This document shows positions 3,039 to 13,443 of a stretch of DNA of 24,000 nt, piece by piece (the first letter of the stretch is position 1; each line of letters opens with the position of its first letter). Origin of the DNA: Aetokthonos hydrillicola CCALA 1050. Lineage in GTDB: Bacteria > Cyanobacteriota > Cyanobacteriia > Cyanobacteriales > Nostocaceae. The notes beneath the pieces are model-generated. The model saw only the letters and a program-made list of their open reading frames with translations. It was not told the origin of the DNA and did not search any database. Position numbers and translations under genes: made by a program. The stretch is from the NCBI RefSeq assembly GCF_017591665.1, contig NZ_JAAKGC010000002.1, positions 126,487-150,486 of the forward strand, given 5' to 3'.

Positions 3039-4061
3039 TTGTTGTTAAGCTTTATGACAGAACAGCCAAAACTCGCTGTTGAGGTGCTAGATAGTTTCGG
3101 TCATTTACTAGAAAACCAAAAAAGAAGCACTCCACAGACTAGAAAATTAACTCGCCGACAGTTTATCAAAGGGGTTGGTTTTGCTAGTGCAGGATTGCTA
3201 GGAGTAATAACGCTGCAGCGAGTGTTTCAGGAGAATCTGCAGCAGTTTGAATTTCAGGTAGTGAAGGTGGATGCAACAGGAAAAATTATCAAGAGCAACA
3301 CTAGTAGCGCAAATTTCTTTACTGAAGATTTGGGCAATGGTGTCACTTTGGATATGGTGGAAATTCCTGGGGGTAAGTTTGTTATGGGTTCCCCGTCAAC
3401 AGAAAAGGATAGATCTGATTCTGAACGTCCACAGCACAATGTTACAATTAAACCTTTTTATATAGGCAAGTTTACCATTACCCAACAGCAATATCAGGCA
3501 GTTATGGGGAAAAATCCCTCCAACTTCAAAGGAGAAAAACGACCTGTTGAACAAGTAAGCTGGGATGATGCGATCGCGTTCTGTGATAAACTATCTCAAA
3601 GGACAGGTAAAACCTATCGGCTACCAAGTGAAGCTGAGTGGGAATATGCTTGTCGTGCTCTTACAACTACCCCGTTTTATTTTGGTGAGACAATTACTAC
3701 GGATTTAGCGAATTATTACGGTAGCTCAACTTATGCATCTGAACCAAAAGGCGTTTACCGTCAGCAAACAACCGAAGTAGGAAAATTTCCACCAAACGCT
3801 TGGGGTTTATATGATATGCATGGTAATATATGGGAGTGGTGTCAAGATACCTGGCATGATAGCTATGAAGGTGCGCCGGTTGACGGCACTGCATGGGTGA
3901 GCGATGATAAAAATAATACACTACATCTGCTGCGGGGTGGTGCTTGGAACAACGTTCCGAGAATATGCCGAACAATAGATCGCGATTGGTTCGCGCGCGA
4001 CTACTCGGACAGCAATGTAGGTTTTCGCGTGGTTGCGGTTAGTGCAGCCAGGACTGTTTAG
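3039..4061 (+). CDS. Standalone FGE-sulfatase-domain protein with Tat-like signal/anchor; paralog of the C-terminal module of the 956-aa protein
   Basis: 340-aa ORF. RLPSEAEWEYACR, GLYDMHGNIWEWCQD and LLRGGAW...GFRVV are typical of PF03781/CLec-fold domains. TRRQFIKGVGFASAGLLGV fits the twin-arginine consensus (S/T-R-R-x-F-L-K plus a hydrophobic stretch). The start is either TTG 3039 or ATG 3054, and an in-frame TGA lies at 2970-2972. Confidence 0.8.
   Translation: MLLSFMTEQPKLAVEVLDSFGHLLENQKRSTPQTRKLTRRQFIKGVGFASAGLLGVITLQRVFQENLQQFEFQVVKVDATGKIIKSNTSSANFFTEDLGNGVTLDMVEIPGGKFVMGSPSTEKDRSDSERPQHNVTIKPFYIGKFTITQQQYQAVMGKNPSNFKGEKRPVEQVSWDDAIAFCDKLSQRTGKTYRLPSEAEWEYACRALTTTPFYFGETITTDLANYYGSSTYASEPKGVYRQQTTEVGKFPPNAWGLYDMHGNIWEWCQDTWHDSYEGAPVDGTAWVSDDKNNTLHLLRGGAWNNVPRICRTIDRDWFARDYSDSNVGFRVVAVSAARTV
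3927..4061 (+). other. VR-like hypervariable 3' end of the standalone paralog
   Basis: It corresponds to 10670-10804. In the 24 codons between W and GFR, 14 differ from the other copy, mostly in codon positions 1-2. This copy keeps more AAC/AAT codons (aac aac ... aat). Confidence 0.6.
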
Positions 4062-4570: not shown

Positions 4571-5563
4571 ATGAAACCCGCGAAAAAAATATTAATGTTA
4601 TCAGCAAATCCTAAGAACACAAATCCTTTACGCTTAGGGGAAGAAGCACGGAAAATTCAAGAAGCGTTGAAACTAGCTAAACATCGAGATGAGTTTGAAA
4701 TTGCGACTTCTTGGGCAGTACGAGTAGAAGATTTACGCCGTGCAATGATAGACTATCAACCGAATATCATTCATTTTTCCGGACATGGAGTGGGAGCAGA
4801 GGGTTTGGCATTTGAAGATAATTCTGGGATGACGCAGTTGGTGAGCAGCGAGGCTATAGCAAGTTTATTTGAATTGTTTCGTGGAACAGTTGAGTGTGTC
4901 CTACTTAACGCCTGCTATAGCGAAGTTCAAGCACAAGCAATTCACCAGCACGTTGATCACGTAATTGGGATGAATCAGTCAATTGGGGACGTAGCTGGAA
5001 TTGAATTTACTATTGGCTTTTATGATGCTTTGGGTGCTGGAGAAAGCTATGACTATGCTTTTAGGATGGGGTGTAATGCTATTCAGCTAAAAGCTAGCCA
5101 GGAAAATTCAACACCAGTCATTAAATCTAGACCATCTTCTGTTTCTGTTAAAAAAGCTGTAAAATCCGATGTTATGTCTGAAAAAAAATCACAACAAAAA
5201 TCCAGTGAGGGAATTGTCTTTAACATTAGCGGTGCTAAAATAGGCGGTGGGATACAAGCTGTACAGGGTGATAACAATCTACAAAGCATGACTAACTATG
5301 CAGCTATTGAACAAAAGTTAAATCTTGCAGAAGTTGCAAAAGAAATTCAACAACTTTTGCAAAAAATAGAAAATTCAAATCCTGCCACAACGAGATTAGA
5401 AAAACTAATGATTGTTACTAAAGCTGTTGAACACATTGAAAATAATTCAGCCTTGAAAGCGCGTGTATTAGAATTAATCAACGCAGATAGAAAAGAAGCT
5501 TTAAAAAAAGAAATTAACCACCCGTTAGCAAAGATTGTACTAGAATCTATAGAAGATTTGTAA
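4571..5563 (+). CDS. Caspase/CHAT-like protease-fold protein (predicted effector) with a Ser/Lys-rich linker and helical C-terminus
   Basis: 330-aa ORF. The N-terminal ~170 aa carry the His...Cys arrangement of clan-CD peptidases: NIIHFSGHG (H68/H72), then ~40 residues later VLLNACYS (C115). This is the widespread cyanobacterial ILxLxANP...RL..E.R.I...L N-terminal module. It is the first gene of a co-directional cluster. Confidence 0.6.
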   Translation: MKPAKKILMLSANPKNTNPLRLGEEARKIQEALKLAKHRDEFEIATSWAVRVEDLRRAMIDYQPNIIHFSGHGVGAEGLAFEDNSGMTQLVSSEAIASLFELFRGTVECVLLNACYSEVQAQAIHQHVDHVIGMNQSIGDVAGIEFTIGFYDALGAGESYDYAFRMGCNAIQLKASQENSTPVIKSRPSSVSVKKAVKSDVMSEKKSQQKSSEGIVFNISGAKIGGGIQAVQGDNNLQSMTNYAAIEQKLNLAEVAKEIQQLLQKIENSNPATTRLEKLMIVTKAVEHIENNSALKARVLELINADRKEALKKEINHPLAKIVLESIEDL

Positions 5564-5582
5564 AAAATCAGTGTTTATACCA

Positions 5583-5688
5583 ATTTTCTGTGAAGCTGCA
5601 CATTATTTTTACCCCTCCTAACCTCCCCTTTCCAAGGGGAGGAAAGAAGGCGGTGGGTTTCTTTCTACACGTCTTCACATAAAAATGG
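5583..5688. mobile_element. MITE-like palindromic element (copy B), same family as 4329-4435
   Basis: ataccaattttctgtgaagctgcac...cccctttccaagggg...gtcttcacataaaaatggtat. The termini and core are similar to copy A. It lies in the intergenic space after the protease gene and could also act as a hairpin terminator. Confidence 0.55.
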
Positions 5689-5730
5689 TATTAAGTGATA
5701 ACTGCTAACTGTTGACGAGTGGTGCATTCT

Positions 5731-5758
5731 GACTCCTGACTCCTGACTCCTGACTCCT
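5731..5758. repeat. Heptamer tandem repeat (GACTCCT)x4
   Basis: Read directly from the sequence. The same heptamer forms the arms of the hairpin element at 11092-11310. It is an STRR-like cyanobacterial repeat class. Confidence 0.9.
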
Positions 5759-5820
5759 TTTTATACTATATCTCTCATCAATTATCTTGAGTTTCTAGTA
5801 TCTTTAACGCAAACTGATAA

Positions 5821-6960
5821 ATGAGTAACAATTTACCCCCTGAAGATAATTTACCACTCATTAAAGACTCAAATATTGAATTCCAGGCAAAAAATTCCAC
5901 AATTGATGGTGGAGTAAAAGTTATTCAGGGGAACGACAATATCCAGATTCACCAGGTTGTTGTTGGAAAGGTCACCTTTGAAAGTAGTATTCGGAAGCAT
6001 GTAAAACGACCTCGTTCTGAACAGGAACCTCCCTCTCTGCTGCCATATTTAGTAAATAGAAAAGAACAGGAAGAGGAGTTAGAAAACGCAGTTAAACTGT
6101 TGTTGAAACAAGTCCATCCTCGCCCTCTAGTTTGCATTATTCATGGTAGCGAATTTCAAGGTCATTATCAATTTTTAAAGCGGTTGCAAAAATCCTTTCT
6201 GCCAAGATTTTTAAAATTAGATCCAACCCAGAAGGTACAGGAATACTGTCTCGAGTGGCCGACTGGATTAAAAAATTTAGATCTACTGAAGGATCGGTTA
6301 TGCAAAAATCTAGTAACCAAAGTTCTAGGTCATGATTTTGATTGTCCGGAAGAAATTAATGCTACTTTAAAAGAAATAAATGCAAGCTTCTGCAAATACC
6401 CTAGTCCAATTGTCATTGATACTCATATACGTACTCAAGACTGGCAGCAGCAAGGATTTGAAATATTAAATAAACTGTTGGAGTTTTGGGACAATTGGCC
6501 TGATCTTATTCCAGGACAGAGACTCATAGTCTGTGTATTTATTAAATACACTATCTATCTGCACAAACATACTGAAGAATTTTCGTTTCCACGGATTTTC
6601 AATTGCTTGCCCAGTTTGTACAAGCGGCATTACTATCAAAGTATAAATAAAAAGATTTCAAAAGTACTTAATAAATCAAAAAATAAACATTTTAATCGCT
6701 TATCGTATACTATCTTGTCAGAATTGAAAAATATTAACATAATGCATGTTGAACACTGGGTACGCGATAAAGAAACGAAACAGTTTGTTGGTGAGGAGAA
6801 GACTCAGAAACTGATTAATGACGTAACACTTATGTTTAATCATTGGGGAAAGGACACAATTCCTATGGATGATTTAGCTGATGAGTTAACTCGCCTACTA
6901 AAGTCACTAAAAGTTACTAATTATACTCATGATAAGAAAAAGCCTAATAGGAGCAAATAG
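5821..6960 (+). CDS. Hypothetical protein; possible inactive STAND-like / vWA-MoxR-associated adaptor
   Basis: 379-aa ORF. LPYLVNRKEQEEELENAV...RPLVCIIHGSEFQGHYQFLKRL sits where a STAND NTPase would have its Walker A, but no GxxxxGK[ST] is present. It ends 2 nt before the AAA+ gene, with an AGGAG 10 nt upstream of that start. The family assignment is inference only. Confidence 0.35.
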   Translation: MSNNLPPEDNLPLIKDSNIEFQAKNSTIDGGVKVIQGNDNIQIHQVVVGKVTFESSIRKHVKRPRSEQEPPSLLPYLVNRKEQEEELENAVKLLLKQVHPRPLVCIIHGSEFQGHYQFLKRLQKSFLPRFLKLDPTQKVQEYCLEWPTGLKNLDLLKDRLCKNLVTKVLGHDFDCPEEINATLKEINASFCKYPSPIVIDTHIRTQDWQQQGFEILNKLLEFWDNWPDLIPGQRLIVCVFIKYTIYLHKHTEEFSFPRIFNCLPSLYKRHYYQSINKKISKVLNKSKNKHFNRLSYTILSELKNINIMHVEHWVRDKETKQFVGEEKTQKLINDVTLMFNHWGKDTIPMDDLADELTRLLKSLKVTNYTHDKKKPNRSK

Positions 6961-6962
6961 AT

Positions 6963-7949
6963 ATGAAATTTCCATTCTACAGAGGTGATGGAACTCGACA
7001 GCAGTATGAATCGCCAGCAAAACTACCTATCTCTAGGCGTTCTCTACTACTGAAGCCAGAATATTACATTGCTGATCTAGGACTTAAAGATGCTTGTAAT
7101 GTAGCCCTCTTATTGGGACAACCCCTTCTGCTTACGGGAGAACCCGGAACTGGAAAGACTCAATTTGCCTACAGTCTTGCATGGGAACTTGGTTTCGATC
7201 CACCATTAAAGTTTGAAACTAAGTCTACTAGTACCGCTCGGGATCTTTTCTATACCTATGATGCATTGAAACGTTTCCAAGATGCCCAAAGCGGTGTTTT
7301 ATCAAGCCCCTTGGATTATATCACCTACCAAGCTCTGGGGCTGGCGATTTTACTAACCCGAGATCCGGCTGAGGTTGAGCAAATCTTACCATCAAATTTC
7401 GCACATCCTGGCAAAGTACGCTCTGTTATTTTAATTGATGAAATTGATAAAGCTCCTCGTGACTTCCCAAATGATCTGCTCAATGAACTGGAACACATGT
7501 ATTTTCGTATTCCAGAGTTAGGAAATAAAATAATTGAAACTGATCCAGCACTCCAACCCATTGTAATTATTACCAGCAATACTGAAAAGGATTTGCCAGA
7601 TGCCTTTCTACGGCGTTGCATTTATTATGATATTCCCTTCCCAGAGCATGAGAGACTTGCAGAAATTATTGCCAACCGCCTTGGACTTTATAATGGTAGC
7701 AGCAATCCATTTTTACAAGATGCTCTTGACTTATTTTATCAATTACGTTCCCCTCAAAGTGGTTTAAGGAAAAAACCTGCAACAGCTGAACTATTAGGTT
7801 GGCTCTTGGCTCTAAAAACCGTTGCTGGTGATACACCTAATCCCTTAGATAAATTAGATCTGGTTCAAGCTACCCTCAGTAGCTTAGTCAAAACTTCCGA
7901 AGATCAAGAAAAAGCTAGACAACTTGTAAAGCAATGGATGCTGCAATAG
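6963..7949 (+). CDS. MoxR-like AAA+ ATPase (AAA_5-type)
   Basis: 328-aa ORF with Walker A LLLTGEPGTGKT, Walker B VILIDEIDKA and sensor region IVIITSNTEKDLPDAFLRRC. It overlaps the downstream gene by 16 nt. Confidence 0.8.
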   Translation: MKFPFYRGDGTRQQYESPAKLPISRRSLLLKPEYYIADLGLKDACNVALLLGQPLLLTGEPGTGKTQFAYSLAWELGFDPPLKFETKSTSTARDLFYTYDALKRFQDAQSGVLSSPLDYITYQALGLAILLTRDPAEVEQILPSNFAHPGKVRSVILIDEIDKAPRDFPNDLLNELEHMYFRIPELGNKIIETDPALQPIVIITSNTEKDLPDAFLRRCIYYDIPFPEHERLAEIIANRLGLYNGSSNPFLQDALDLFYQLRSPQSGLRKKPATAELLGWLLALKTVAGDTPNPLDKLDLVQATLSSLVKTSEDQEKARQLVKQWMLQ

Positions 7950-10804
7950 AAATAAATATCCCTGACTGGTTAAATCGCAATGTTCTAACCGATTTTATTG
8001 ATGAACTCAGAGATGCAGGCTATAACATTGGCATTGCTCAGTATATTGCAGCTTATGATTTAATCTTAGCACTAACGGCTCAGGGTGAACCCTTGAATAA
8101 ACCAGAGCGTCTCAAAACTCTGCTTGGACCAATCTTTTGTAGTTCACCAGCTGAGCAGGAAGATTTTCAGCAACGCTTTGACCGTTGGGTTGAGTTGGTT
8201 TGTCAAACTGGTCGCGCAACGGAGGGAGCAGATGTAAAAGCTCAAGCATTATCAGAAGAATTAGGAAAGATCGAAAGGCGTTTGCCTCAGTTAAATAGAA
8301 GACTTATTCTAATTGCTCTAACAGGAATCATTCTACCCTTGTTCTTGGAACAGTCTATAAAAGATGAGAGTACTAGGCCAAAACAACCTTCTGCGAAACA
8401 ACCTTCCGCAAAACAACCTTCTACAACACAACCTTCTACAACACAACCTTCTACAACACAACCTTCTACAACACAACCTTCTACAACATTTGTAACGCCA
8501 CGCAATCGAGACTTTCCACAGGATTGGCAGATATATTTGTTCTCTTTTTTGCTTACTTCTGGTATTATTTTTATAGTGTGGCGTTTATGGTGGTTATGGC
8601 GTGCTCGCCTGTTCTTACAGCGTCATGGAACTACGAAACAGCCTGAGCTATATAAGATTGCTTTCCGTGAATTTGAGCAAAACTTATTCCCTACAATTAT
8701 ATTGATACATGCTGCTCAGAGTTTAAGGTATCGAATCCGTATCCCATCCGATGAACTTGATATTGATAAAACCATTGATGCAACTTTTCGCCAAGGAGGA
8801 TGGCTGACACCAGTATACGGTATTCGTCAAGTTCTTCCCGAGTATCTGTTTCTTATTGATCGTGCTAGCTACTCTGATCATCAGGCTAAATTTATAGAAG
8901 AGATGGTTGAGCGCCTTAAACACAATGGAGTTTTTATCACAAGCTATTTCTTTGATGATGATCCGCGAATTTGCTTTCCTAGTGATGGTATAAGCTCTCC
9001 ACAGAAACTTAACGAAATAGCAGCAAAATTTGCTCAACATCGCCTTGTTATCGTCTCAGATATAGAGAAGCTATTTAGTTCTCAAACTGGTGAGCTAGAA
9101 TCTTGGGTGAGTCAAATGACAAGCTGGGAGCATAGAGCTATTTTAACCCCAAAACCTTTCGAAAGTTGGGGATATCAAGAGTTAGAACTCGCACGCCAGT
9201 TTATTGTTTTACCCGCAACTCCTCAAGGGGTGCGATCGCTTAGCCAAGTTTTACATCACGGATCTGCAACCTACGTTCTCTCTGAAAAAGACCAAAATCC
9301 TCTACCGGAAACGTTGCGTACTCAACCCCATTACTGGATTGAGCGCAACCCGCCAAAACCTGAGCAGATCAATACAATGTTAAACTCATTGCAGGAATAT
9401 CTCGGCGAAGACGGTTTTTACTGGCTCAGCGCTTGTGCTGTTTTTCCGGAGTTACATTGGAACATTACAATCTATCTGGGTAATGCTCTCAAAACAGAGG
9501 ACAGTCAAAGTCTTTTGGAGGTTTGTTCACTAACTAATCTGGCTCGCTTACCCTGGTTTCGTTATGGTTACATACCAGATTGGTTGCGTTCTCGTCTCAT
9601 TGCAACCCTTACATACGAACAGAAGCATACAATCCGCACTGCACTTCAAGATTTACTCATCACTGCTGTTCAGGGATCTGTAGGTAGACAGCAATTAGAA
9701 GTTGCACAAAAGCATCACAGTTTTCTACCTAAACTTGCTAATTCGATACTTTCCCTGTTATCTAGAAGAGCGACTGAAGGTAGTCCATTACGAGACTACT
9801 TGTTTTTAAGCTTTATGACGGGACAGCCAAAACTCGCTGTTGAGGTGCTAGATACTTTCAGTCATTTACTACAAAAGCCACAAAGAATCACTCGGCGACA
9901 GTTTATCAAATGGGCTGGTTTTGTTAGTGCAGGATTCGTAGGAGCAATAGCGCTGCAGCAACTGTTTCAGGAGAATCTGCAGCAGTTTGAATTTCCGGTA
10001 GTGAAGGTGGATGCAACAGGAAAAATTACCAACCGCACGAATAAACAAGCAAATTTCTTTACTGAAGATTTGGGTAATGGTGTGACTTTAGATATGGTAG
10101 AAATTCCTGGGGGTAAGTTTGTTATGGGTTCCCCGTCAACAGAAAAGGATAGATCTGATTCTGAAGGTCCACAGCACAATGTGACGATTAAACGTTTTTT
10201 CATGGGCAAGTTTACCATTACCCAGCAGCAATATCAGGCAGTTATGGGGAAAAATCCCTCGAACTTCAAAGGAGAAAAACGACCTGTTGAAGGAGTAAGT
10301 TGGGATGATGCGATCGCTTTCTGTGCTAAACTATCTCAAAGGACAGGTAAAACCTATCGGCTACCAAGTGAAGCTGAGTGGGAATATGCTTGTCGTGGTT
10401 GGACTACTACGCCGTTTTATTTTGGTGAGACGATTACAACGGATTTAGCAAATTATAACGGTGACTATACTTATGCATCTGAACCAAAAGGCGTTTACCG
10501 TCAGCAAACAACCGAAGTAGGAAAATTTCCACCAAACGCTTGCGGTTTATATGATATGCATGGTAATATATGGGAGTGGTGTCAAGATACCTGGCATGAT
10601 AACTACCAAGGTGCGCCAGATGACGGCACTGCATGGGTGAGCGATAATAATGTTAATAATTCTCGACGTCTGCTGCGTGGCGGTTCGTGGGTCAACGATC
10701 CGAGGTTCTGTCGTTCGGCGTTTCGCGTCAGGCTCGCGCGCGCCTTCTCGAACGACCTTGTGGGTTTTCGCGTGGTCGTGGTTGGTGCAGCCAGGACTCA
10801 TTAG
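7934..10804 (+). CDS. Membrane protein: CoxE-like N-domain, TM hairpin with PST repeat, vWA-like domain (degenerate MIDAS), Tat-like anchor, FGE-sulfatase/CLec domain carrying a DGR variable region
   Basis: 956-aa ORF. The N-terminus FIDELRDAGYNIG...EDFQQRFDRWV and the middle ELDIDKTIDATFRQGG...EYLFLIDRASYSD...VFITSYFFDDD are collinear with CoxE-type vWA proteins (PF05762) as I remember them. Hydrophobic segments are LILIALTGIILPLFL, IYLFSFLLTSGIIFIVWRLWWLW and WAGFVSAGFVGAIAL (the last preceded by TRRQFIK). The C-terminus has RLPSEAEWEYACR, GLYDMHGNIWEWCQD and LLRGGSW...GFRVV. Confidence 0.75.
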   Translation: MDAAIEINIPDWLNRNVLTDFIDELRDAGYNIGIAQYIAAYDLILALTAQGEPLNKPERLKTLLGPIFCSSPAEQEDFQQRFDRWVELVCQTGRATEGADVKAQALSEELGKIERRLPQLNRRLILIALTGIILPLFLEQSIKDESTRPKQPSAKQPSAKQPSTTQPSTTQPSTTQPSTTQPSTTFVTPRNRDFPQDWQIYLFSFLLTSGIIFIVWRLWWLWRARLFLQRHGTTKQPELYKIAFREFEQNLFPTIILIHAAQSLRYRIRIPSDELDIDKTIDATFRQGGWLTPVYGIRQVLPEYLFLIDRASYSDHQAKFIEEMVERLKHNGVFITSYFFDDDPRICFPSDGISSPQKLNEIAAKFAQHRLVIVSDIEKLFSSQTGELESWVSQMTSWEHRAILTPKPFESWGYQELELARQFIVLPATPQGVRSLSQVLHHGSATYVLSEKDQNPLPETLRTQPHYWIERNPPKPEQINTMLNSLQEYLGEDGFYWLSACAVFPELHWNITIYLGNALKTEDSQSLLEVCSLTNLARLPWFRYGYIPDWLRSRLIATLTYEQKHTIRTALQDLLITAVQGSVGRQQLEVAQKHHSFLPKLANSILSLLSRRATEGSPLRDYLFLSFMTGQPKLAVEVLDTFSHLLQKPQRITRRQFIKWAGFVSAGFVGAIALQQLFQENLQQFEFPVVKVDATGKITNRTNKQANFFTEDLGNGVTLDMVEIPGGKFVMGSPSTEKDRSDSEGPQHNVTIKRFFMGKFTITQQQYQAVMGKNPSNFKGEKRPVEGVSWDDAIAFCAKLSQRTGKTYRLPSEAEWEYACRGWTTTPFYFGETITTDLANYNGDYTYASEPKGVYRQQTTEVGKFPPNACGLYDMHGNIWEWCQDTWHDNYQGAPDDGTAWVSDNNVNNSRRLLRGGSWVNDPRFCRSAFRVRLARAFSNDLVGFRVVVVGAARTH
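8381..8485 (+). repeat. In-frame 15-nt tandem repeat, 7 units, encoding (KQPSA)2-KQPST-(TQPST)4
   Basis: Units aaacaaccttctgcg / aaacaaccttccgca / aaacaaccttctaca / acacaaccttctaca x4, read directly. It lies between the first two hydrophobic segments of the 956-aa protein. Confidence 0.95.
10670..10804 (+). other. DGR variable region (VR) at the 3' end of the 956-aa gene
   Basis: Its 5' 18 nt (ctgctgcgtggcggttcg) are repeated exactly at 12427-12444 just after the RT gene. The segment is the only strongly divergent part between two otherwise ~85-90% identical paralogs. It occupies the canonical LLRGGSW...GFRV position of CLec-fold DGR targets, and avd and RT are immediately downstream. Confidence 0.7.
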
Positions 10805-10855
10805 CCCTTTACTCTCTTGCACTTTTGCACTCTACCCTCTATTATTTACCTTTAC

Positions 10856-10882
10856 TCCGCCGCAGGCGGATCGATTTTTTTT
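10856..10882 (+). terminator. Hairpin plus T-run downstream of VR (intrinsic terminator; possibly also the DGR target-site hairpin)
   Basis: tccgcc-gca-ggcgga (6-bp GC-rich stem, 3-nt loop) at 10856-10870, followed by tcga and tttttttt (10875-10882). Confidence 0.6.
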
Positions 10883-10894
10883 GAGTTTTTTAAG

Positions 10895-11091
10895 ATGAGC
10901 GATTTGCCTATTATACAGAAAACCTACGATTTGATCAAGTGGTATGTCCCAATTTTAAACCGCGTGCCGAGAGAACATAAATTTTTATTGGCAAACCGGA
11001 TGATTACAGGACTGTACGATATTCGGGATGCTCTGATCGTAGCACGGTATTCCACCAAAGACAAGTTAGCTCAGTTAGAATCTTTGAAGAA
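10895..11091 (+). pseudogene. avd: DGR accessory variability determinant (Avd), 3'-truncated
   Basis: MSDLPIIQKTYDLIKWYVPILNRVPREHKFLLANRMITGLYDIRDALIVARYSTKDKLAQLESL matches the N-terminal half of cyanobacterial Avd proteins as I recall them. From 11092 the frame runs into a GAATTCAGGAGTCA-repeat hairpin element and ends at 11173. No second half of avd follows before the RT start. ATG 10895 is preferred over the listed 10817 start, which lies upstream of the terminator. Confidence 0.6.
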
Positions 11092-11310
11092 GAATTCAGG
11101 AGTCAGAATTCAGGAGTCAGAACAAGAGCGTAAGGGATTCGATTCAAACCTGCCACTAATTGCAGACCGCTAAATCTTCTCCTATCGGAGACGCTACGCG
11201 TAGCTTGCTTCCCCAAAGGGGTACGATTTAGCCGGGGTCTTAAGCCCCTTAACTCATCTGCCAGTCGTACAGAATTCATGCGCTCATTCTGACTCCTGAT
11301 TCCTGAGTTC
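11092..11310. mobile_element. ORF-less hairpin element with inverted heptamer-repeat arms, replacing the 3' half of avd
   Basis: The left arm is (gaattcaggagtca)x2 at 11092-11119. The right arm ttctgactcctgattcctgagttc at 11287-11310 is its imperfect reverse complement. The interior contains further palindromes (gctaaatc...gatttagc). Confidence 0.55.
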
Positions 11311-11329
11311 TATTTAATAAGACAACAGC

Positions 11330-12391
11330 ATGAAACGACATGGTAATCTGTGGAAGGACGTTATCGCGTTTGAGAATTTACTAACAGCTAGCCGGAAAGC
11401 ACAACGGGGCAAACGTTTTCGAGACAATGTTCTGTCGTTCAATTACAATCTAGAGAAAGAGCTATTTCAACTACAAGCAGAATTACAGTCAAAAACATAC
11501 AATCCCGGTTTATATACAACATTTCGGATTTTTGAACCAAAGCCACGTCTGATTTCTGCTGCTCCTTATCGCGATAGAGTAGTACATCACGCTCTTTGCA
11601 ACATTATTGCTCCTATTTTTGAAAGAACATTCATTCATGATTCCTACGCTAACCGCGTTGGTTTTGGCAGTCACCGCGCGTTACGTCGTTTTACAAGCTT
11701 TGCGCGCTCAAGTCGCTACATTCTGCAATGCGATATTCGCAAATATTTTCCCAGCATCGACCATGAAATTTTAAGGTCACTGGTACGCCGTAAAATCAAA
11801 TGCCGTGATACACTCTGGCTAATCGACAATATTATTGATGCAAGTAACCCTCAAGAACCAGTTATCGATTACTTCCCTGGTGATGATTTACTTATGCCTT
11901 TGGAACGACGAAGAGGCTTGCCAATTGGTAATTTAACCAGCCAATTCTTTGCGAATGTATACCTTAACAGTTTAGATCATTTTGTTAAAGAACAAATCAA
12001 AGCGACCAAATATGTTCGCTACGTTGATGATTTTGCTTTGTTTTCAGATGACCGAGAATTTTTAGAAAACGCAAGACGAGAAATCGAAGAACACCTTGCT
12101 AGTCTGAGGCTCAAGCTTCATCCTGTTAAGAGCCAATTATTTCAGACAAAACACGGTGCCAATTTTGTTGGTTTTCGCATCTTACCAAATCGGATTCGAG
12201 TAAGGAACGATAATCTGCGTCTCGCAAGGCGAAGATTACGAAAGATGGTTTTAGACTATAGAGAGGGCAAAATTACCCAACAGGAAGTATCTCAGTCAAT
12301 TCGGAGTTGGATTGGTCACTTAAAACATGGAGATACTTGGCGATTGCGCCAGGAAATATTTAGTTCTCTCGTGTTTTCAAAAAAACCCTAA
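11330..12391 (+). CDS. DGR-type reverse transcriptase
   Basis: 353-aa intact ORF beginning MKRHGNLW. It has the RT motifs [26 protein letters not shown] (the [I/L]GxxxSQ motif typical of DGR RTs) and the catalytic [11 protein letters not shown]. Confidence 0.85.
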
Positions 12392-12426
12392 TATGTTATC
12401 CTCAACTGTGGGGTAGGCAATACCGA

Positions 12427-12444
12427 CTGCTGCGTGGCGGTTCG
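12427..12444 (+). other. 5' stub of the DGR template repeat (TR)
   Basis: An 18-nt exact match to the start of VR (10670-10687), located 36 nt after the RT stop. The match stops at the edge of the inserted cassette (12445). A tgg that would continue the match follows the cassette at 12881-12883. Confidence 0.55.
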
Positions 12445-12880
12445 AATTCAGTTATCAGTTATCAGTTATCAGTTATCAGTCGATTATGAATAGTTTAGTT
12501 TATGAGAAAGCGTATAAATTTGCCATTCGCATTGTAAACGCATACAAATATCTTTCTGAAGAGAAGAAAGAATATATTTTATCAAAGCAATTAATTAGAA
12601 GCGGAACCTCAATTGGAGCTAATATCGCTGAAGCTAATGGAGCAATATCTCAAGCAGATTTTTGCTGCAAAATTTCTATTGCTTATAAAGAATGCTTGGA
12701 AACGAAATATTGGCTTTCTTTGTTAAAAGATACAGCATACATTGAGCAGAAAGCATTTGATAGCATTTATGAAGATGCAGATGAAATAGGAAAAATTCTA
12801 TTTTCAATCCTTAAAAAAACAAAAATTAAACAACAATCAATAGAATGATAACTGATAACTGATAACTGATAACTGATAAG
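12445..12880. mobile_element. IVS-like cassette: four-helix-bundle gene flanked by inverted heptamer arrays, inserted in the TR
   Basis: (cagttat)x4 at 12449-12476 and (gataact)x4 at 12847-12874 are reverse complements of each other. The interior is visibly more AT-rich than the flanks. Like the element in avd, it starts with gaattcag. Confidence 0.65.
12486..12848 (+). CDS. Four helix bundle protein (23S rRNA intervening-sequence protein / Avd superfamily)
   Basis: 120-aa ORF. LIRSGTSIGANIAEANGAISQADFCCKISIAYKECLETKYWLSLL is the hallmark of the TIGR02436/PF05635 family. Confidence 0.8.
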   Translation: MNSLVYEKAYKFAIRIVNAYKYLSEEKKEYILSKQLIRSGTSIGANIAEANGAISQADFCCKISIAYKECLETKYWLSLLKDTAYIEQKAFDSIYEDADEIGKILFSILKKTKIKQQSIE

Positions 12881-12976
12881 TGGGGTTGGAAACAATCTTC
12901 GAAAATAAAACTGAGTCGGATAGCTTAGTAGGCTGCAAAGTCGAACGGTTTGTCTGACTTATTGAAGTTTATAGGT

Positions 12977-13124
12977 CAATATGGTTCAGTTAAAGCCTAA
13001 AGTTGTGTAGTTGTGTAGTTGTGTAGGTTGGGCTGAGGGACGAAGACCAACATTTTTAGAATTTCGTTGGGCAACACGAGCGTTCAACCCAACCTACCAC
13101 TAAGCCTTAACTGAACCGTATTGG
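12977..13124. mobile_element. MITE-like nested palindromic element, including an (agttgtgt)x3 octamer repeat
   Basis: Outer inverted repeats caatatggttcagttaaagcctaaag (12977-13002) and ctaagccttaactgaaccgtattg (13100-13123). Inner inverted repeats gtaggttgggctgagg / gttcaacccaacctac. Confidence 0.6.
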
Positions 13125-13218
13125 GTTATAGATCTGCAATCAGTCAACCAAAAAGTTTTTCTCCAAAGAGCAATGCCTGCGGCGGGCTGCGCCTACGCTA
13201 ATTTGTTTGTAGCCTATG

Positions 13219-13443
13219 TTACTGTATTTCCCAATCTTCAATCAGCAAGTTATTAACACGCTTAAATTCTCTAGTATTATGGGTAATGAGAGTTAAATTA
13301 TTTGTCAGCGCGATCGCAGCAATTTGTAAGTCATAAGCTCCGATGGGAGTGCCTAATGCTTCTAGCCCAGATCGAATCGTTCCAAATGTCATACTTACTA
13401 GATCATCAAACGGTAGTGATGTGAATTGGGCTAAAAATTTTTG
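13219..13443 (-). pseudogene. VapC-type PIN toxin, C-terminal fragment only
   Basis: The minus-strand frame reads QKFLAQFTSLPFDDLVSMTFGTIRSGLEALGTPIGAYDLQIAAIALTNNLTLITHNTREFKRVNNLLIEDWEIQ*. It has no N-terminal PIN half and no start, and an in-frame stop lies at 13444-13446. Confidence 0.65.

Follow-up and report, generated by a model that had tools for sequence, protein, structure and literature searches.

A 24,000-nt window of the Aetokthonos hydrillicola genome (the whole stretch of DNA analysed here) holds a diversity-generating retroelement (DGR) that is most probably in decay, having suffered two insertion-plus-deletion lesions that would leave its variable repeat (VR1) fixed unless another element services it. 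The ancestral locus would have been laid out as target gene, avd, reverse transcriptase (RT) gene, template repeat (TR), spacer and 3′ RNA hairpin, as in related cyanobacteria. At the first lesion, a 226-bp hairpin element that lacks an open reading frame (ORF) and has inverted GAATTCAGGAGTCA arrays (element A) appears to have taken the place of the last ~140 nt of avd. At the second, a 438-bp cassette coding for an S23p-family protein (cassette B), of the type known as intervening sequences (IVSs) in 23S rRNA, appears to have taken the place of ~175 nt, comprising the TR from about position 22 onwards and ~60 nt of spacer. With no template and no Avd, the RT would be left without anything to copy into VR1. 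A locus that retains an intact RT ORF and has neither a usable TR nor an intact avd should be unable to diversify VR1 in cis, and on this point our analysis agrees with an initial annotation of the same DNA.

The loss of the template emerges from comparison with three reference loci: L002 (a cyanobacterial metagenome assembly whose RT is named Cyanobacteria bacterium UBA8543), L006 (Nostoc sp. CENA67) and L004 (a second Aetokthonos DGR). All three share the order target, avd, RT, TR, spacer, then a conserved block and hairpin; their TR starts 21-48 nt past the RT stop, and the conserved block, TCCGAAAATnAAAC, followed by the hairpin, lies ~175 nt beyond the first 18-21 nt of the TR. In the window, the stretch that aligns with these TR starts is a remnant comprising the first 21 nt of the repeat (12424..12444, plus strand), 20 of which equal VR positions 10667-10687, with 18 nt matching exactly; the TR/VR match had rightly been described as short. 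Cassette B follows immediately (12445..12882, plus strand), after which the sequence resumes at GTGgggTTGG, the spacer just before the 3′ element. Between GGCGGTTCG and GTGgggTTGG, 174-175 nt that are present in all three relatives are missing from the window, a loss that covers the TR body (positions ~22 to the end) and ~60 nt of spacer and that cassette B replaces. Whereas a DGR has a TR of ~100-150 nt that matches the VR save at adenines, only 21 nt are left here, and no VR-like repeat lies downstream of the RT within the window. The initial annotation took the TR to be split by the cassette; on this alignment it is deleted, not split.

The element that follows the TR in related DGRs survives. 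The stretch at 12883..12962 (plus strand), with a TTCGAAAATAAAAC motif and a hairpin at 12913-12960, aligns, in L002, L004 and L006, to sequence ~175 nt downstream of the TR start. In the consensus hairpin of eight loci, compensatory changes affect 7 of 17 pairs, as expected of a structured RNA, and this covariation marks it as a conserved RNA structure, evidently of the template transcript. What had been taken for a weak resemblance to the VR after the cassette is this post-TR element. We also considered the post-cassette stretch as a degenerate TR and rejected it, as it aligns to the ortholog spacer and 3′ element, the "tgg" at its start being the spacer's GTGxGG.

Cassette B consists of an ORF between inverted arrays. 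Its left array (12445-12480) comprises AATTCAG followed by four copies of TTATCAG, its right array (12846-12882) comprises 4.9 copies of TGATAAC and contains the stop codon of the ORF, and between them an intact ORF (12486-12848), overlooked in the initial annotation, encodes a 120-aa four-helix-bundle protein. Read as (TCAGTTA)x4.7 and (TGATAAC)x4.9, the arrays are 97-100% complementary, with 32-nt arms and a stem of ~31-33 bp, and the (TCAGTTA)x4.7 array ends 6 nt upstream of the ATG. The minimum-energy fold of the cassette pairs the arrays (z -6.25), and none of 100 dinucleotide shuffles was equally stable. The protein matches PF05635 (E 1.5e-31), TIGR02436 (E 8e-33) and, in the PDB, 2RLD (E 2.9e-34). 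By these matches it belongs to the S23p family, which was first found in 23S rRNA intervening sequences, and would be a distant relative of Avd. No PADLOC defence-system model matched either this protein or the DGR target.

The accessory gene of the DGR is damaged as well. The avd remnant (10895..11090, plus strand) covers codons 1 to ~65 of ~113-115. Its ORF matches the Avd model NF033474 with E 2.3e-18, below the model's cutoff and over positions 1-60 of 104 only, matches PF22296 over positions 3-58 of 107, and can be aligned to three full-length orthologs only to about nt 190 (~11087-11094), bearing out the truncation near 11092 that the initial annotation had noticed. The open frame continues into element A to a stop at 11173, ~140 nt of the avd 3′ end having been replaced by that element, and homology to the orthologs returns ~15 nt before the RT ATG. 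By comparison, the avd genes of L002, L004 and L006 encode proteins of 112-115 aa and extend 4 nt into the RT gene; the window has no intact avd. Related DGRs frequently carry inserts between avd and RT (a PIN-domain gene pair, hairpin repeats) that leave avd intact, and it is the truncation that is unusual in the window locus. The gene pair occupies ~700 nt between intact avd and RT genes in L110, L125, L128, L160 and L162; its second gene encodes a PIN_2-domain protein in L160 by Pfam, the other four loci being matched by sequence reading, and the pair may be a toxin-antitoxin pair.

Element A itself (~226 bp at 11091..11314, no strand assigned) was delimited by its inverted arrays, its fold and the ortholog alignment. 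Its arrays, with 14-mer and 7-mer periods, lie at 11091-11122 and 11286-11311 around a structured core, and its fold (-91.1 kcal/mol, z -6.68) was matched in stability by none of 200 dinucleotide shuffles. The same arrays recur seven times, around different cores, within 13 kb of a further contig of this genome (L004), where the subterminal motif GCCAGTCG[CT]AC..GAATTCAT also recurs. With its inverted repeats and no ORF, element A is a candidate miniature inverted-repeat transposable element (MITE); its core is single-copy in the available DNA, with no second copy in the window, L004 or L124 (a third Aetokthonos DGR locus), and we accordingly discarded the idea that element A is a copy of a repeated core. 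It is not a decayed S23p gene either, as its 58-aa minus-strand ORF has no Pfam match.

The arrays of both elements lie where the initial annotation had placed them, both elements fold beyond shuffled expectation, and two separate repeat-bounded hairpin elements do stand at the two lesions. Its further claim that both belong to one class holds in part: each has inverted heptamer arrays in an xxxTCAG register, and the 24 kb contain GAATTCAG three times where 0.93 occurrences would be expected, always at the start of element A or B, but A has no ORF whereas B encodes an S23p protein.

The remaining parts of the locus are in good order. The RT (11330..12391, plus strand), full-length at 353 aa, matches RVT_1 (E 2.5e-23) and retains the catalytic motifs IGNLTSQ and YVDD of the DGR clade, as had been recognized from the start; it is 76-81% identical to the RTs of complete cyanobacterial DGRs. 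The target gene (7934..10804, plus strand) encodes 956 aa with a C-terminal FGE-sulfatase/CLec-type domain (PF03781, E 2.8e-57, aa 720-948), and VR1 (~10667-10800) lies at its C-terminal end. Aligned to the TRs of related DGRs, VR1 differs mainly at TR adenines, which together with the domain is what a DGR target looks like. A 1.3-kb Logan contig (run SRR12347192) is 100% identical from the right-hand junction of element A through the RT to the boundary between TR remnant and cassette, so the structure of the locus is not an assembly artefact. Additionally, an A. hydrillicola Thurmond2011 protein is 100% identical to the window RT, and the CCALA 1050 assembly encodes an identical C-terminal 557 aa of the target and the same cassette protein.

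Several points weigh against a dead DGR. The RT ORF is intact and shows no detectable relaxation of constraint (dN/dS, the ratio of nonsynonymous to synonymous divergence, is 0.10 against L006); this could mean that the lesions are young, or that the RT remains in use, perhaps together with the Avd of the second DGR. No target-site duplications were seen at either element. A matching TR may lie elsewhere in the genome, as the sequence read amounts to ~44 kb (window, L004 and L124) of a multi-megabase genome. Finally, a frozen VR1 is something we infer from the missing parts, as are loss of DGR activity, processing by RNase III, and the order and cause of the deletions.

The initial annotation remarked on the sparing of the RT and considered a disarming that was either deliberate or accidental. 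Two hits placed at random in the ~1.74-kb core would both miss the RT with a probability of ~0.15, and the related loci L160, L162 and L163 do hold elements inside the RT, so the sparing is not significant, and we found nothing in support of a regulated process. In L163, the element is bounded by inverted repeats and lies at about codon 38 (~820-960), and in L162 a GCGGTTT heptamer has been expanded in place inside the RT coding sequence (~2880-2911), apparently from a native AAGCGGTTT. Arrays can therefore arise locally, and the RT is not immune to elements.

The cassette belongs to a widespread family. A scan of one genome per species returned 231 relatives of its protein, of which the best 80 were kept; the window's own locus was not among the matches, though the protein is recorded for two Aetokthonos assemblies. 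These best 80 are 72-93% identical to the window protein and come from Cyanobacteria, Acidobacteriota (Pyrinomonadaceae chromosomes), Bacteroidota (Runella, Emticicia) and Beggiatoaceae. Period-7 arrays stand in a flank at 75 of the 80 loci, compared with 30 of 400 random control positions in the same loci, and on both sides at 51 of the 80, compared with 1 of 400; an inverted-complementarity score of at least 14 was reached by 62 of the 80 and by 1 of the 400 controls. The array-ORF-array unit is thus conserved outside rRNA genes, with a heptamer that varies by lineage (CAGTTAT, CATTTAT or CAATTAT), and the ORF is under strong purifying selection (dN/dS 0.05-0.10). At L035 (Zarconia navalis), the cassette homolog is flanked by GACAGAT-type heptamers, a unit reported upstream of the Coxiella IVS S23p ORF.

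Does this cassette lineage have an affinity for DGRs? Relatives of the cassette occur at seven other DGR target or relic loci and in three other RT loci, and avd, RT or TR is damaged or absent each time. A DGR-type FGE-sulfatase target lies within 2.5 kb at 7 of the 80 cassette loci (L007, L008, L012, L014, L016, L041 and L086), L083 adding one weak 40-aa target match at the locus edge, and no RT or avd was found within 2.5 kb at any of the 80. An array abuts the end of the target ORF in L007, L012, L014, L016 and L086. In L007, L008 and L012 the DGR 3′ element survives beyond the cassette, which means that these loci have lost avd, RT and most if not all of the TR, and L007 and L008 share the junction GGATA followed by GCTTGGTAGG, with their cassette ORFs in opposite orientations. 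Sequence downstream of the 3′ element in L012 (Nostochopsis) matches L008 (Westiellopsis), which makes these two relics orthologous; in L012, an insertion sequence with DDE_3 and HTH genes (1340-2400) lies between the cassette and the surviving TR end, spacer and 3′ element. Among the RT loci, a cassette truncates the RT at about codon 331 in L160, where the TR is absent, and the first 8-17 codons of avd have been lost in L110 and L118 to cassettes of another S23p subfamily, which have GAAGTCA arrays at their ends and lie in opposite orientations in the two loci. Synonymous divergence (dS) among the window, L007 and L008 cassettes is 0.2-0.3, as against at least 1.3 for the adjacent target domains (63-72% protein identity), so the cassettes are younger than their loci.

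Intact DGRs provide the complementary view. Among 80 RT loci from metagenomes, 73 could be evaluated for a TR. A strict TR/VR caller passed 26 of the 73, as local alignments ran into flanks, and a looser reading of the table gives approximately 52 of 73 with a normal TR near the RT. None of these ~52 has a cassette between RT and TR, which speaks against the possibility, raised in the initial annotation, that active DGRs are naturally split in this manner.

These observations point to cassette movement with some preference for DGR sequence. Compatible with decay at the window locus, and adding a tropism to it, is a reading in which this S23p cassette lineage prefers or spreads among DGR loci, in particular VR/TR 3′ ends and nearby hairpins, and acts as an agent of DGR inactivation. 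The nearby targets, the arrays abutting their ends, the retained 3′ elements, the shared junction, the damage to RT and avd in L160, L110 and L118 and the youth of the cassettes are all consistent with it. However, the query itself was DGR-resident, and the location of its closest relatives may simply have been inherited or have come with the transfer of whole relics; most of the 80 loci show no DGR signal, junction positions vary among loci, the counts describe this sample of loci only, and an insertion preference would look the same here as preferential retention. We regard a true tropism as a serious candidate that falls somewhat short of even chances.

A still broader proposal is that S23p/IVS cassettes form one cross-phylum mobile family drawn to structured, highly transcribed RNA genes, 23S rRNA being only one of them. 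One lineage would home to the VR/TR 3′ ends and nearby hairpins of cyanobacterial DGRs, delete TR, avd or RT and so switch diversification off, and the cassette would supply the vehicle that has been lacking to explain the patchy distribution of TAACTGA arrays discussed below. This proposal is doubtful as a whole, and we put it forward tentatively; if true, entry might use breaks or cDNA made by the DGR, or an Avd-like interaction between S23p and RT.

Returning to the decay of the window locus, VR1 could in principle still be diversified in trans, if a fitting TR and an Avd were supplied from another site in the genome and acted with the window RT or another. At least two further DGRs are present in the same assembly. 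In L004 (DGR2), which has a full-length avd (115 aa), RT and TR, the TR differs from its own VR by 21 mismatches, all at adenines; in L124 (DGR3; JAESFG010000108.1 107402-114457, in the order RT, TR, target), it differs by 9, again all at adenines. No avd was found within 3 kb upstream in L124; ~230 nt after its target stand a (CTGATAA)x3 array and then a DUF6825 gene. The trans-acting parts that the initial annotation had thought possible do therefore exist, and the window RT is intact, but these TRs are unfit for VR1: the L004 TR shows at least 15 and the L124 TR 38 non-adenine differences from it, and the sequences at the repeat ends differ as well. Having this many non-adenine mismatches, neither TR is a donor for VR1, and both were likewise rejected for VR2, a VR-like region described below. 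Although an intact Avd is available in trans, the ~44 kb read contain no donor template for VR1. VR1 is, moreover, identical in two assemblies, which is weak evidence because both probably derive from the same culture. Together, these results make continuing diversification in trans improbable.

A yet more improbable account has the four-helix-bundle protein of the cassette acting in place of Avd, which would leave the template as the only missing part. In its favour, PF05635 proteins are homologous to Avd in structure (PMC10053308), the PDB entry matched best, 2RLD, contains five chains, and the cassette protein gives weak matches to bAvd and Avd models (E 7e-4 and 5.6e-3). Against the Avd model NF033474, however, it scores 17 bits where the cutoff is 80, BLASTP against the genome's own Avd gives E 0.32, and its gene lies downstream of the RT, not abutting the RT start. 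A 72-93% identical protein is also found in Acidobacteriota, Bacteroidota and Beggiatoaceae, and in loci without an RT. At the window locus the question is moot, as the TR is missing.

In the reading we favour, a decaying DGR, the cassette would be a selfish unit akin to the ORF-bearing intervening sequences of 23S rRNA. In a host transcript that includes the cassette, the two arrays would form a ~32-bp stem, and the cut by RNase III expected there would free the enclosed mRNA while severing the host RNA without rejoining it. The remaining alternative, also raised in the initial annotation, is that RNA processing removes the elements and rebuilds a working template; RNase III does excise IVS-type elements from RNA (PMC4990558), but the ortholog alignment refutes this rescue and leaves it a negligible chance, as the 174-175 nt with the TR body are missing from the DNA and removal of the cassette from RNA cannot restore them, excision by RNase III leaves fragments without religation (PMC4990558), and the avd coding sequence lost to element A is beyond repair at the RNA level.

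Other features of the window complete the picture. A third hairpin element (12966..13135, no strand assigned), MITE-like with 30-nt inverted ends, a (AGTTGTGT)x3.2 array and a nested 14-nt inverted repeat, lies directly past the DGR 3′ hairpin and is absent from the aligned orthologs. Downstream of the VR, a GC hairpin, CCGCC-GCA-GGCGG, with a T-run (10857..10883, plus strand) was read directly from the letters; GCGCG..CGCGC hairpins occupy the aligned position in L002, L006 and L008. Rfam searches of 10800-13300, at gathering-threshold and permissive settings, gave no match to element A, cassette B or the 3′ hairpin.

A second FGE-sulfatase gene (3039..4061, plus strand; 340 aa; PF03781, E 1.4e-56) has a VR-like 3′ end (VR2, 3927-4061) whose end block, GGTTTTCGCGTGGT..GTGCAGCCAGGACT, is common to VR1. 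VR2 and VR1 differ at adenine-type and at other positions alike, and the gene is probably a former, older second target of the same DGR. CHAT-domain, iSTAND and AAA ATPase genes (4571-7949) separate the two FGE genes, a context that looks like a conflict or signalling system, and the 956-aa target ORF overlaps the end of the AAA ATPase ORF. At 5690-5760, TAACTG-like units and GGTGCATTCTGA lead into a one-sided (CTGACTC)x4.3 array, which is similar to the right end of small hairpin elements in L004 (770-913 and 10503-10655).

Decay is a known outcome for cyanobacterial DGRs (PMC7517822); the agent described here, an S23p cassette of the IVS type that lies outside rRNA and is met again at other DGR lesions, had gone unreported. 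It offers a concrete route for switching diversification off, through repeat-bounded hairpin elements and adjacent deletions, which recurs in unrelated cyanobacterial DGRs. It also has a practical consequence: a four-helix-bundle gene beside a DGR RT is not necessarily Avd, and pipelines that call Avd through PF05635-like models could rate this dead locus as complete. The study of the Coxiella IVS left open the role of the S23p protein, the origin of the IVS and its route to new sites (PMC4990558). To this problem our results add an array-ORF-array unit conserved outside rRNA, a protein that remains 72-93% identical over four phyla, strong purifying selection on its ORF, and closely related copies in much more diverged DGR loci. 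These four points make mobility and site choice directly testable, and they tie the cassette to the unexplained cross-phylum arrays of TAACTGA.

How do these elements relate to known systems? Nostocales genomes carry short tandemly repeated repetitive (STRR) heptamers and MITE-like hairpins. Element A and the third hairpin are similarly short, non-coding and repeat-bounded, and arrays like those of element A are numerous in L004; the single-copy core of element A in the available sequence, and the absence of a visible target-site duplication, set it apart. Among degraded cyanobacterial DGRs, Anabaena sp. 90 retains only the RT, and all3226 of Nostoc PCC 7120 shows remnant TR-VR homology; that diversification is switched off after a variant has been fixed has already been proposed (PMC7517822). 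The window locus is like them in that an FGE-sulfatase/CLec-type regulatory protein was diversified and the machinery is partly lost. It differs in that the RT and the 3′ RNA element are intact, and in that one can see both the lesions and their agents, which are hairpin elements bounded by repeats and lying next to deletions.

The closest parallel to cassette B is the ORF-bearing IVS of 23S rRNA, known at 428-444 nt from Coxiella burnetii, Leptospira and Brucella (PMC4990558). At 428 nt, the Coxiella IVS is closed by a 28-bp terminal stem and carries tandem heptamers ahead of the S23p ATG; RNase III excises it, and the rRNA is not rejoined (PMC4990558). Cassette B shares the size (438 nt), the S23p/PF05635 ORF, the terminal inverted repeats forming a stem of ~28-32 bp around that ORF, and the tandem heptamers, variable in number, just upstream of the ATG. 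Unlike these IVSs, it sits at the template-repeat site of a DGR and not in a 23S helix, Rfam finding no rRNA within the window, and its arrays are long, with TAACTGA-type units on both sides. Its ORF is intact and under strong purifying selection, whereas that of Coxiella is decaying; and excision by RNase III, known for Coxiella, is for cassette B a prediction from its anatomy.

Finally, direct-repeat arrays of TAACTGA have been described in Beggiatoaceae, Cyanobacteria and Bacteroidetes, with no vehicle for their horizontal transfer and with S23p unmentioned (MacGregor 2015, PMC4679880). The cassette arrays have the same heptamer (TGATAAC/TAACTGA), the same odd phylogenetic spread and the same position directly before start codons, with stops in all three frames. 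What differs is that here the arrays come as inverted pairs around a highly conserved S23p gene, and the array-flanked S23p cassette is a candidate for the vehicle by which the TAACTGA arrays have spread.

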